Shown here: positions 6,234-26,656 of the stretch, one piece after another
Numbering within the stretch: position 1 is the first letter of the stretch
How the letters are laid out: each line of letters starts with the position of its first letter
Source: an uncultured Gammaproteobacteria bacterium
GTDB taxonomy: Bacteria > Pseudomonadota > Gammaproteobacteria > JAURND01
Assembly (NCBI GenBank): GCA_963797335.1
Contig: CAWCOU010000001.1
Location: 10,963-74,962, forward strand
DNA length: 64,000 nt
Direction: 5' to 3'
Position numbers and translations under genes: made by a program
Notes under the pieces: model-generated
The model's input: the letters and a program-made list of their open reading frames with translations, nothing else
What the model was told of the DNA's origin: nothing
Databases searched by the model: none

Positions 6234-6506
6234 TTATTCTGCGCATTCCACGTTGTTGCTGTTTGTTGTCGTAGTTTGCAGGAAATAAGCAGCAATATCA
6301 GGGCGTAGTAAATATTTAGAAATAATTCGATCAGGGGTATGCAAGCTGCTGGCTTCAGTTAATCGTTCTGCCAGGCGCCAGCTTGGTTTGCTATGGCCTC
6401 TGGCAATTTGCCATAGGTAGGCAATAGTAGTCCCTGCCATTCTTGCGACATCTTCACGTTGCTGAATGGTGGATTCATGCATCCATTGTCTCAAGTTTAT
6501 TTCCAT
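6234..6506 (-). CDS. Cro/YdaS-like small HTH regulator
   Basis: QREDVARMAGTTIAYLWQIARGHSKPS HTH and terminal LRPDI motif typical of lambdoid Cro/YdaS proteins. Confidence 0.8.
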   Translation of the reverse strand: MEINLRQWMHESTIQQREDVARMAGTTIAYLWQIARGHSKPSWRLAERLTEASSLHTPDRIISKYLLRPDIAAYFLQTTTTNSNNVECAE

Positions 6507-6513
6507 TTTGTTA

Positions 6514-6532
6514 GTTTAGCCAAACGCTAAAC
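6514..6532. promoter_or_regulatory. Putative operator between divergent cro and cI
   Basis: Perfect dyad GTTTAGC-N5-GCTAAAC, 8 bp upstream of the cro ATG; second weaker dyad GGTGC-N9-GCACC at 6562-6580. Confidence 0.55.
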
Positions 6533-6603
6533 AGTTTGTCAAGTGGGTGTTGGTGGTTTTCGGTGCAAATTTAACGCACCACAAAAGTGAATGACGTTAT
6601 TTT

Positions 6604-7248
6604 ATGGAAAGTAAAGAAATTAGATTGATTAATCTACGCAAATTGCTCAAAGAAGCAAAAACAGCTGCCTGGTTAGCAAAAACAGCCAAGACCAGCCCGG
6701 CGTATATCAGCCAAATTTTGAGTCCTAGATCGAAAGGTAATATTGGCGATAAGCTGGCTAGAAAATTAGAAAAAGCAACCGGCAAACCAAAAGGATGGTT
6801 GGATTCTCTGCACGATGAGCGGTCACCTCGCACCTCGTTTACCCAATTCGTGCCTTTACTCGAAGCCAAGCAAATTTTCGAATGGTTTGCGGGGAAGGGT
6901 TGGCCACCGATTAAAATGATCCGTGTGATTGACCCTATCAGCTCACAGGGTGATAATGTCTTCTCTATTGAGGTGAGCGGTGATGATATGGTCTCCCACA
7001 CCAGTGTGGCTTCGAGTATTTGCCCAGGGGACATAGCCATTATCGATCAAGATTTGGAGCCCGATCTAGGAAATATCGTCGTGGTCAATACCAGTTGTTC
7101 GATTAAACTGAGGCAGCTTTCTCTGGATGGTGATGAGCAGGTCTTAAAAGCCTTGAATCCTCAATACCCCATTTTGCCGTTTTCCAAAGATTTCCAGATT
7201 CTCGGCGTGGTCTTTGAGGTCAGGCGAATTTTTAAGAACACGGTGTAA
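6604..7248 (+). CDS. CI/LexA-like repressor (XRE HTH + S24 domain), catalytic dyad apparently substituted
   Basis: SPAYISQI...IGDKLARKLEKATGKPKGWLD HTH; S24 fold with LKALNPQYP and ILGVV; GDDM instead of GDSM. Confidence 0.88.
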   Translation: MESKEIRLINLRKLLKEAKTAAWLAKTAKTSPAYISQILSPRSKGNIGDKLARKLEKATGKPKGWLDSLHDERSPRTSFTQFVPLLEAKQIFEWFAGKGWPPIKMIRVIDPISSQGDNVFSIEVSGDDMVSHTSVASSICPGDIAIIDQDLEPDLGNIVVVNTSCSIKLRQLSLDGDEQVLKALNPQYPILPFSKDFQILGVVFEVRRIFKNTV

Positions 7249-7325: not shown

Positions 7326-7691
7326 ATGAAAGAACAATTGCCAACCCGAGTTCCGTCAAAACAAACATCCACCCTTAAAACGATTGCAATCGCTATTGCC
7401 TTGATCGTTATTTGTCTGCTGGTATTCCATTTATTTTTTCCGATCTTTGGCGCTGCGGTCATCATCAGCGCTGCGGCTTGGGGCATTATCGTTGCCAGTG
7501 TAGTGTTGTTTTGTTTAGTCTTATTATTACTTTTTCTTTTTTCAGGAGCTATTGCCACTACCGTCTTGGGCTTGCTTGCCTTTGCGTGGTTAATCGTTGC
7601 GCTCATTATATTTCCGATTGTCTTCCCATTAATTATGCCTATTTTTATTATGATCGTAGCCATTGGTTTTATTCTTCGACGTAGAAAATAA
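7326..7691 (+). CDS. Small multi-pass membrane protein
   Basis: 121 aa, almost entirely hydrophobic, basic C-terminus; AGGAAAGGA SD. Confidence 0.75.
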   Translation: MKEQLPTRVPSKQTSTLKTIAIAIALIVICLLVFHLFFPIFGAAVIISAAAWGIIVASVVLFCLVLLLLFLFSGAIATTVLGLLAFAWLIVALIIFPIVFPLIMPIFIMIVAIGFILRRRK

Positions 7692-7791: not shown

Positions 7792-8253
7792 TTAGGTATT
7801 GTCAGGAATCAAACGAGTACGTGGTCCGTAGATCACCAATACTTTTTGGCCAACGAACAAGTTGGTATCTTGCGTTTGCGTCACGGTAATCACATTGTGA
7901 TTTTTCAAGCGAATCACGTATTCATAGCCAATTTGGGAATGAATCGATTGATCCAAAGAATTGCCTATCACCCCACCTAACACCGCGCCGCCCAATGCCC
8001 CAGCAATTCGGGCCGTAGGATTTTGGCTGATTAAAGACCCGGCTAATGCGCCACCACCAGTGCCCACCAGGCCACCCACTCGGCTATTGTTATCAATTTG
8101 CACTGCTCGTTTAGATAAAATAACCCCAGACGCAGTTCTGTTAACCGTGCCTACCTCTCCGGCGTTAAGGGTGTTAGAAGATAAATTAGGGCTGCAACCG
8201 ACCAAAACCAAGCTGATCAAGAGTAACGGAAGTAGTGTAAAGATTTTTTTCAT
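7792..8253 (-). CDS. Glycine-zipper 2TM outer-membrane lipoprotein (SlyB/17-kDa antigen-like)
   Basis: Start re-placed at ATG 8253 (MKKIFTLLPLLLISLVLVGC lipobox); GGLVGTGGGALAG and GALGGAVLGGVIG zippers. Confidence 0.85.
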   Translation of the reverse strand: MKKIFTLLPLLLISLVLVGCSPNLSSNTLNAGEVGTVNRTASGVILSKRAVQIDNNSRVGGLVGTGGGALAGSLISQNPTARIAGALGGAVLGGVIGNSLDQSIHSQIGYEYVIRLKNHNVITVTQTQDTNLFVGQKVLVIYGPRTRLIPDNT

Positions 8254-8345
8254 GATAAATTTATCCAAAAAATAGGTAAATATTGATTTTAACACACGCC
8301 AAAGATCGATAGGCGCTAGTTGCCGAGCGGAAGTATAGAGTGAAG

Positions 8346-8363
8346 ATATTAAAATAATCTTAA
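8346..8363 (-). promoter_or_regulatory. Conserved 18-bp motif, PmrA/OmpR-type direct-repeat box candidate
   Basis: ATATTAAAATAATCTTAA, identical at 35973-35990; on the - strand reads cTTAAgatt-N2-tTTAAtat with 11-bp period. Confidence 0.5.
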
Positions 8364-8376
8364 GTAGGAAAATGCG

Positions 8377-25703: not shown

Positions 25704-26546
25704 CTATAATTCCTCGATTTCCTCAACAGAAAGCTCAATAAGCGAAGCAATTTCTTTTTTGTCTAGACCCTTATTCAACAATTTACGCACAACTCCCTGT
25801 TTTGCATGAAGCATGCCTTCTTCCCACCCTTTTTTCTTGGCTCCATAAACCAATGTTTTTTCAATACTGACGGCATCCCAATATTTGTCATATGATGTTA
25901 ATTCGGCAGGCGTATAAGCTGATTCCTCCGCCAAATCCACCGCTTTTTTAATTTCTGGAACAGTTAACCATTCATCGGGAATCTGTTGGGATTTTTCATT
26001 TAATTCCGACATAAAACGCAACCACAAAATATGTAATTTTTTTTCTTGAATATTCTTCGCCTTAAATTTAGGCAGTTCAATAAAAATTAACTGCAAATCT
26101 TTAATTTCAGCTTTCTGTGGTTTGGCGACATTCACGATTTTATAATGATGGTACCAATCGCTGTCATCGGGCTCAAATACCGTATTAATTAATCCCAAGC
26201 CATACACAGGTCTTAATAACTCATACTGTTCTCCTTTCTCCAATTGGGTCACATAGGCTTTACTGGCATTAAATAGCATGCGTTGCATAAAACCAGTGGT
26301 CCACTGGATTTGCATTTCGACAATAAATACGCGGCCTTGTTGGTCAGTACATCGCACATCGACAACGGTATATTTGAAGCTGGGGATGCGTGGCACTTGT
26401 TCACTGGGTAGGTATTCTAGATTTTGGATCAAACCATCGTAAGGAAGAGGGAGCACGGAGTTGAGGAAGCTCTTCAACAACTCCGGGTGTTGACCAAAGA
26501 TTTTTTTAAAAACGATATCGGTTTTTGGATCAAGGTAGCGTGCCAT
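25704..26546 (-). CDS. Rpn family recombination-promoting PD-(D/E)XK nuclease/putative transposase
   Basis: YLDPKTDIVFKKIFG, VDVRCTD..GRVFIVEMQ, FIELPKF; ATG 26546 with GGAGGA SD. Confidence 0.92.
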   Translation of the reverse strand: MARYLDPKTDIVFKKIFGQHPELLKSFLNSVLPLPYDGLIQNLEYLPSEQVPRIPSFKYTVVDVRCTDQQGRVFIVEMQIQWTTGFMQRMLFNASKAYVTQLEKGEQYELLRPVYGLGLINTVFEPDDSDWYHHYKIVNVAKPQKAEIKDLQLIFIELPKFKAKNIQEKKLHILWLRFMSELNEKSQQIPDEWLTVPEIKKAVDLAEESAYTPAELTSYDKYWDAVSIEKTLVYGAKKKGWEEGMLHAKQGVVRKLLNKGLDKKEIASLIELSVEEIEEL

Positions 26547-26656
26547 AAAATCCTCCATGGGTAACCAACTAAATGATTCCCTGAGAATGTCTGGTTAGCC
26601 ATGAACTGTCAATACCGTATTTCCTGAAGCTCCCTGCACATAAAATCCGTACTTAA

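Follow-up and report, generated by a model that had tools for sequence, protein, structure and literature searches.

A CI-type repressor lacking the S24 catalytic residues is conserved with its putative operator and a Cro-like gene in an uncultured Legionellales-like gammaproteobacterium

Introduction

Repressors of the S24 peptidase family form the textbook link between DNA damage and the induction of genes or prophages. A 64,000-nucleotide stretch from an uncultured gammaproteobacterium (assembly GCA_963797335.1, contig CAWCOU010000001.1, positions 10,963 to 74,962 of the forward strand; hereafter the window) encodes a CI-like repressor of this family and, divergent from it, a small Cro/YdaS-like protein. 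An initial annotation, made from the letters of the window, read the two genes as an orphan switch with a repressor unable to cleave itself. The locus raises the question of what a phage-type repressor is kept for among core genes, and whether it can still respond to DNA damage. We compared the pair with its relatives in protein, genome, and phage databases. The locus probably encodes a domesticated, RecA-insensitive CI-type repressor, which would regulate its own gene and repress the cro-like gene.

Results

The S24 fold is retained without its catalytic residues

Both open reading frames (ORFs) of the divergent pair are present as annotated. The 214-residue repressor matches Peptidase_S24 (PF00717) over residues 106-204 with an E-value of 1.4e-13 and 50.9 bits (cut-off 23.3), and its N-terminus weakly matches the helix-turn-helix (HTH) family HTH_3 of Pfam. 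It falls outside the LexA equivalog TIGR00498, of which the C-domain alone aligns (34.3 bits vs a cut-off of 110.95). The best sequence matches in the PDB are lambda CI C-terminal domains (CTDs; E 1e-6), and residues 1-73 find their best match in the N-domain of a "phage repressor CI" (7nkv, E 7e-6). In an AlphaFold (AF2) model calculated from the family alignment, the C-domain reaches a pLDDT of ~90. Foldseek superimposes this domain on the lambda CI CTD (1kca) with a target-normalised TM-score of 0.85 and a root mean square deviation of 1.5 Å, with LexA and UmuD ranking next among the matches.

Within this fold, the active site is altered at both catalytic positions. The nucleophile motif reads GDDM (G126-D127-D128-M129), and the lysine-side segment reads I-K-L-R170-Q-L. 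D128 falls on Ser149 and R170 on Lys192 of lambda CI, and this assignment is common to a HMMER comparison with lambda CI, a MAFFT alignment that took in lambda CI, LexA, and canonical relatives, and an hhalign profile comparison. Thus, both substitutions described in the initial annotation hold in three independent alignments. The same annotation had regarded the Ala-Gly cleavage site as retained, and this part of the description needs to be withdrawn. A96-G97 exists, but the pair is not conserved in relatives and its register depends on the alignment. When the "xPL" strand and a Trp serve as anchors, a gapless HMM alignment places the canonical Ala-Gly at I91-F92, while hhalign, with a gap of six residues, places it at G97-K98, one residue off A96-G97. 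T-G stands at this position in the relative with 89% identity and T-T in that with 84%, and others have Q-G, L-G, S-G, G-D, or D-D. Ala occupies this column in 2 of 31 family members, and the A-G pair itself occurs in the window protein only. On the sequences compared, A96-G97 is best read as a non-conserved coincidence or a vestige, apparently not under selection.

Consequently, the repressor has none of the three hallmarks of self-cleaving S24 proteins, namely Ser in G-x-S-M, Lys in T-[FV]-K, and a conserved Ala/Cys-Gly. With Ser and Lys lost and no conserved Ala-Gly, RecA*-stimulated self-cleavage is not expected to inactivate the repressor, and the protein is predicted to be non-cleavable in vitro. 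The same Lys-to-Arg change renders LexA uncleavable in vivo, and LexA K156R, an engineered Ind- allele deficient in SOS induction, serves as uncleavable LexA (PMC5760743). In contrast to this laboratory mutant, the change in the window repressor is natural and fixed, and the nucleophile is lost too.

Catalytic loss probably extends to the whole repressor family

A search of 5.8 billion proteins returned 32 close relatives with 42-89% identity, nearly all from metagenomes, and 31 full-length members were aligned. Arg170 is found in 31/31. The nucleophile column holds Ala in 19, Ser in 7, Asp in 3, and Thr in 2 members, a free drift as expected of a dead site. SWVxAG, GDSM, and TFK are present without exception in the canonical relatives at 25-34% identity, which come from Pantoea, Thiomicrospira, Methylococcaceae, and viral contigs of IMG/VR, and the Arg family is monophyletic in a neighbour-joining tree. 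As judged from these alignments, catalytic loss is not peculiar to the window gene but appears fixed in the whole family. Conservation is uneven along the protein, with a mean family identity of 75% in the N-terminal domain, 25% in the linker, and 56% in the CTD.

The basal member P0032 (42% identity, Thr/Arg at the catalytic positions) lies in a phage- or mobile-element-like region (locus L212, 1-9550), which encodes a lambda-P-like protein, a GH108 lysozyme, a 1057-residue ORF, IstB, and CsrA and has TTTAGT-N5-ACTAAA sites upstream and just downstream of the repressor gene. Since catalysis is lost family-wide including this member of a phage-like element, the loss probably predates domestication. 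Sampled viruses hold no closer relative: a search of 2.9 million IMG/VR contigs yielded no family member beyond 34% identity, and the best match to the repressor in 50,697 GenBank phage records is 31% identical. The metagenome-assembled genome (MAG) MFD00731.bin.1.206 (loci L001/L021) contains two family paralogs, P0015 and P0030. Outside the family, a 34%-identical relative (L051, 1496-2182, plus strand) has GESM, Arg for Lys (AILRQL), and A-A for A-G. In L051, part of the cleavage apparatus has thus been lost independently, and the repressor gene still has a cro-like partner.

The pair is under strong purifying selection in a conserved gene order

Two relatives of the window, L046 and L047, encode repressors with 84 and 89% amino-acid identity, respectively, and retain the order HAD phosphatase, cro-like gene, CI-like gene, 121-residue membrane protein, and Gly-zipper lipoprotein. 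The ratio of non-synonymous to synonymous substitution rates (dN/dS) is, at a dS of 0.95-1.6, 0.06-0.07 for the repressor, 0.15 for the cro-like gene, and 0.22 for the flanking HAD phosphatase. The pair is not decaying and stands under strong purifying selection. This selection speaks for the domestication first proposed and against a recent remnant, with synteny held at a dS of at least 1 or near it.

A putative palindromic operator is conserved in register with the repressor gene

The spacer between the two genes contains the perfect dyad GTTTAGC-N5-GCTAAAC that had been noted initially, here termed O1. With up to 2 mismatches allowed, a scan of the window returned this one match in 64 kb (expected 0.29); the degenerate core TTTAGY-N5-RCTAAA is expected 0.035 times per 64 kb. 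Upstream of the family genes, TTTAGY-N5-RCTAAA (≤2 mismatches) recurs in register, at a distance of 84-93 nt from the repressor ATG, at 10 of the 12 loci with upstream sequence. This in-register position is independent of the neighbouring genes. The O1 motif is missing upstream in the subclade of P0030, P0025, and P0029. Within the window clade (L046/L047), the half-sites of O1 are invariant and its 5-bp spacer varies. Relative to L046, 17/19 positions of O1 and 11/13 of the adjacent TTGTCAAGTG box are identical, compared with 25/58 in the remaining spacer. An inverted repeat, GGTGC-N9-GCACC (6562-6580), lies between O1 and the repressor start, in place of the O2-like box of most other family loci; it occurs in L047 (as N11) and is absent from L046.

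O1 is embedded in a promoter-like site that faces the cro-like gene. TTGACA-18-TAAACT scores 10/12 against the consensus, and its -10 hexamer is formed by an O1 half-site. A protein bound at O1 would hence occlude this promoter. The -10 element ends 6 nt before the ATG at 6506, so that the cro-like mRNA would be leaderless or nearly so, a layout known for lambda cI transcribed from PRM. In L001, a second exact dyad lies inside TTGACA-18-TAAAGT-6 nt-ATG of a cro homolog, and L024 and L074 have a similar layout. The minus-strand -35 box is kept where a divergent gene is present, i.e., in the window clade, L014 (TTGACA-18-TAAAAT), L210 (TTGACA-18-TAGAAT), and L020, and has decayed without a divergent gene, i.e., in L012, L016, and at L001's own site. 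TTGTCA-17-TTCGGT and the conserved TATTTAC box, the candidate elements for a promoter of the repressor gene itself, were rejected as weak. With a single good operator and no lambda-like triple, the anatomy of the spacer does not imply bistability.

The cro-like gene is a probable conserved target rather than an obligatory neighbour

The 90-residue Cro-like protein has a weak HTH_31/HTH_3 match in Pfam. A profile of its family matches the "phage Cro" chains 8co2/8c7k of the PDB with an E-value of ~1e-9, and 2 of 9 homologs weakly match PF15943 (best E 0.003). The window protein is 71% identical to its L046 homolog, and the N-termini of homologs align to M1 (ATG 6506) and not to M9, the start chosen by gene callers. 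An AF2 model calculated from a 2-sequence alignment was unusable (pLDDT 53). Word-index protein searches with both Cro-like proteins recovered their own clades only, with P0037 as the one new contig, and a locus search with a 3-member Cro alignment returned nothing beyond the MAG of L001. A toxin-antitoxin reading, suggested by the Pfam name "YdaS_toxin", was set aside, as its basis is a weak HTH match. A defence system was likewise rejected: the one PADLOC hit is a weak capH match (a generic HTH) of the Cro-like protein, and neither the repressor nor the membrane protein has any.

The association of the two genes is loose. In L001, the repressor gene has no divergent partner, and the cro homolog, an 83-residue ORF with 51% identity to the window protein, lies 7 kb away. 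L012 and L016 have no partner adjacent to the repressor gene. The divergent partner in L014 (7206-7511, minus strand) and L210 (5003-5830, minus strand) is a different HTH protein. In L210, this partner seems by eye to have an S24-like domain of its own, with DDGM for Ser and TLFRRV with Arg for Lys, where Pfam reports the HTH only; L210 would then hold two unrelated pseudo-S24 repressors back to back. Cro-like homologs also lie divergent to canonical or short CI relatives in L024, L051, L057, L058, L074, and L081, with TTTAGC/GCTAAA-type sites between the genes. Taken as sequence comparisons, these arrangements identify the cro-like gene as a probable conserved target of the repressor, not an obligatory neighbour.

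Arginine variants recur among CI-like proteins

A search of 1.84 billion cluster representatives by profile placed the family in a wider setting, and the 150 nearest 50%-identity clusters were scored (P0038-P0184). The scores drop sharply after about 5 family clusters, from 348-204 bits to ≤151 bits. Among these best 150 clusters, ~56 have Arg at the Lys position (S/R 21, A/R 20, D/R 5, T/R 4, E/R 3) and 79 are S/K, the Arg share being biased upward since the search profile itself carries Arg. Arg variants are clearly recurrent among CI-like clusters. Where Asp or Glu occupies the Ser position, Arg occupies the Lys position in 8/8 clusters, which are related to one another; this pairing hints at a structural salt bridge. 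In 21 clusters, an intact GDSM serine is combined with Arg. Among the papers searched, none was found on Arg-variant S24 repressors.

Genomic context and host

The window carries serA, serC, a SerB-like HAD phosphatase gene, bipA, pepP, nrdAB, trxB, and serS, along with cytochrome oxidase, beta-oxidation, and mevalonate-pathway genes. The last include HMG-CoA reductase, GHMP kinase, and diphosphomevalonate decarboxylase (59884-63943, plus strand) and fit a Legionella/Coxiella-like lineage. The window BipA is 73-74% identical to sequences of Legionella and Legionellales MAGs, and the host is an uncultured Legionellales-like soil gammaproteobacterium. Its source is a soil metagenome, represented in the sequencing runs by DNA contigs only.

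A Pfam scan covered 45 window ORFs, including 43 of the 48 with at least 150 residues. No integrase, replication, or structural phage domain was found among these 45 ORFs, several of which have no match at all, and the Pfam-annotated neighbours across the window are core or ordinary chromosomal genes. The initial placement of the pair outside a prophage and among core genes is thus borne out. The window contains no tRNA and no Rfam match, and the cassette shows no anomaly in G+C content. The coordinates of the locus are listed in Table 1.

Table 1. Features of the divergent locus (positions counted from the first nucleotide of the window)
Feature	Position	Strand	Remarks
Cro/YdaS-like small HTH gene, 90 aa	6234-6506	-	ORF; start ATG 6506
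Divergent regulatory region, 97 bp	6507-6603		Conserved islands within otherwise diverged spacer
Promoter-like site TTGACA-18-TAAACT	6513-6542	-	Faces cro-like gene; consensus scan
Operator O1, perfect dyad GTTTAGC-CAAAC-GCTAAAC	6514-6532		Core TTTAGY-N5-RCTAAA at 6515-6531
CI-like repressor, 214 aa	6604-7248	+	HTH 1-69, variable linker 70-117, S24-fold CTD 118-209 without catalytic residues
A96-G97 ("cleavage site" of the initial annotation)	6889-6894	+	Not conserved, register uncertain
Codon GAT, Asp128	6985-6987	+	Position of S24 nucleophile Ser (lambda S149, LexA S119)
Codon AGG, Arg170	7111-7113	+	Position of general-base Lys (lambda K192, LexA K156)
121-aa multi-pass membrane protein	7326-7691	+	78 nt downstream of repressor gene, same strand

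The membrane protein encoded downstream of the repressor has no match in Pfam, PHROG, or PADLOC. Its gene is syntenic in the window clade only (L046, L047, L048; dN/dS 0.08-0.11), and no plus-strand terminator separates it from the repressor gene. The two genes may be co-transcribed, although the membership of the membrane-protein gene in the unit is uncertain. The layout resembles the membrane "moron" or exclusion genes found downstream of phage cI.

Two further regions of the window stand out. A 1950-residue ORF (8377-14229, plus strand), by eye rich in Sel1/TPR-type repeats, is flanked by Gly-zipper lipoprotein genes at 7792-8415 (minus strand) and 15380-16024 (plus strand), both covered by the Pfam scan; its appearance suggests an effector or a surface protein of the Legionellales kind. 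A lone PDDEXK_2 gene (Rpn/transposase-like nuclease; 25704-26558, minus strand) lies amid core genes.

Discussion

A model for the domesticated repressor

We propose that a captured phage-type immunity module has become fixed in the chromosome. The S24 domain would be retained as a folded unit, presumably for dimerisation and perhaps for sensing. The nearly invariant HTH of the repressor is predicted from sequence to bind the 17-bp O1, which fills the spacer and the -10 element of the predicted strong cro-side promoter, so that occupancy would repress the leaderless cro-like gene. With O1 ~86 bp upstream of the repressor start, the same site may also provide autoregulation.

Several observations weigh against this model. 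Seven family members pair Ser with Arg, and residual chemistry is possible in those. The chromosomal place of family members differs in every genome, which leaves room for repeated acquisition. O1 is missing from L021 and L211, two loci of one subclade. The window clade has one good dyad, and the O2-like box (TTTAGY-N8-TATTTAC) present at most other loci is degenerate here. The spacer offers no convincing sigma-70 -10 element from which the repressor gene itself could be transcribed. Moreover, the Cro-like protein could bind O1 alongside or instead of the repressor, and the organism is known solely from soil metagenome DNA.

A further reading and rival explanations

The dead S24 domain may have gained a new role as a RecA-independent input domain that senses a protein or small-molecule signal, a tentative reading that we hold to be rather unlikely. 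On this view, a salt bridge between Asp/Glu at the Ser position and Arg at the Lys position would keep the former active-site cleft locked. The main rival, which we regard as unlikely though hard to separate from the model, is that the locus serves superinfection immunity: a captured SOS-proof repressor would silence phages with the same operators, and the cro-like gene would be a leftover target. P0032 fits this picture well, as a basal, non-catalytic member in a phage-like element that has sites of the O1 type on both sides of its repressor gene and comes from the same sample kinds as the family members. The varying chromosomal positions and an HTH much more conserved than the rest of the repressor point the same way. 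However, specificities in immunity usually diversify fast, whereas HTH and operator are near-frozen here among members with 46-58% identity. The presumed leftover is itself under purifying selection, its operator is kept when the gene is unlinked, and the phage and viral collections searched hold no close relative of the repressor. It is also conceivable, if improbable, that O1 is mainly the site of self-repression by the Cro-like protein and that the CI-like protein acts elsewhere or as a partner. In the window and in L001, L024, and L074, O1 directly adjoins the start codon of the cro-like gene, and CI and Cro often have operators in common. Nevertheless, the register between O1 and the repressor ATG is kept in L012 and L016 despite the missing cro-like neighbour, and its conservation follows the near-invariant HTH of CI rather than the Cro-like protein, of which homologs are 47-71% identical.

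That the repressor is still an inducible autoprotease is very improbable. Such activity would require non-canonical residues, such as A96-G97 for the bond or a shifted S131/K168 dyad, or else Arg in the role of the base. Nearly all members have S131 and K168 (30/31 each), K168 precedes R170 by two residues and shares its strand face, and A96-G97 is at most one residue from the canonical register in the hhalign comparison. However, S131 also occurs in canonical relatives (GDSMTS) and is ancestral rather than a replacement, the nucleophile column drifts between A, S, D, and T, the closest relatives have no A-G, and the LexA K156R precedent speaks against Arg as a base. A catalytic dyad displaced to S131 and K168 was therefore rejected. 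Least credible of all is a recent remnant of a deleted prophage that drifts to loss. The homology of the pair to phage immunity modules would suit such an origin, but the low dN/dS at saturating dS, the identical synteny in two other species-level relatives, the conservation of the repressor beyond that of the flanking HAD phosphatase, and the lack of any other recognisable phage gene among the scanned ORFs of the 64 kb all speak against it.

Comparison with known systems

The domesticated repressor and its partner resemble lambda CI/Cro (COG2932) in the HTH N-domain joined to an S24-fold C-domain, in the divergent small HTH gene, and in a palindromic operator that overlaps the "lytic-side" promoter. 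As in a lambdoid switch, the repressor and cro genes diverge from a common operator region. In contrast to lambda, the repressor has neither the Ser/Lys dyad nor a conserved Ala-Gly, and one good operator takes the place of OR1-3. The pair is fixed in the chromosome among core genes and lacks downstream lytic genes: the gene adjoining the cro-like gene is the convergent HAD phosphatase, with no lytic or replication gene adjacent.

A second phage relative is Escherichia phage Evi, whose CI is the protein of 7nkv (100% tblastn match) and also of 8c3k/8c3l; the Cro chains 8c7k/8co2 are probably from phage Evi or a related phage. Evi CI is the closest solved structure for the N-domain of the window repressor, the divergent 100-residue gene of Evi is homologous to the Cro-like family (hhalign probability 98%), and the Evi spacer contains GTTTAGTG repeats and TTTAGT-GATT-ACTAAA. 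In contrast to the window repressor, Evi CI is a protein of 123 residues without an S24 domain, the half-sites of its dyad are 4 instead of 5 positions apart, and it lies next to replication genes in a functional phage genome. No paper was found in a literature search on phage Evi and these PDB codes.

Among chromosomal regulators, FddR of Francisella comes closest. FddR is a lambdoid-type S24 repressor co-opted outside prophages, palindrome-autoregulated, with a divergent gene partner and paralogs, and prophage repressors of Pantoea ananatis are among its nearest relatives elsewhere (PMC13148647). The window repressor has a comparable setting, with a non-prophage location, a palindrome upstream of its own gene, and a divergent gene, and a canonical relative of its family likewise lies in a P. 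ananatis genome (L025). In contrast, FddR has intact Ser, Lys, and Ala-Gly, is induced by ciprofloxacin, recognises the motif GTG-N11-CAC, and has a partner that is not a Cro-like HTH protein (PMC13148647). LexA of Synechocystis sp. PCC 6803 is likewise presented as a non-cleavable pseudo-protease transcription factor, and the part of the description consulted does not list the lysine among the missing elements (PMC7567884). As far as that description goes, it differs from the window repressor in being a canonical LexA-clade protein with a winged-helix N-domain, not phage-derived and without a Cro partner. IrvR of Streptococcus mutans is a chromosomal LexA-like regulator described as an exception to RecA-dependent control (PMC7101444). 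Its autocleavage is discussed at length in that paper, so that it is not presented there as cleavage-dead; it is also a Gram-positive protein with an unrelated N-domain.

Implications

A well-conserved family appears to have dropped the link to DNA damage and kept the S24 domain, the operator, and the Cro-like target under selection. Together with the recurrent Arg variants, this points to a common but little-studied mode of RecA-independent control in phage-type switches. With one repressor, a 17-bp operator, and a predicted leaderless target gene, the locus offers a compact system for asking what replaces self-cleavage. If the S24 domain does act as an input domain, the family and the other Arg-variant clusters would represent an unrecognised class of phage-derived host regulators. 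Cultivated Legionellales, to our knowledge, lack LexA; in lineages like these, a Cro-like effector would then be coupled to a cue other than DNA damage. After Francisella FddR, the locus would be a further case in which gammaproteobacteria of the intracellular type make host regulation from captured phage repressors.

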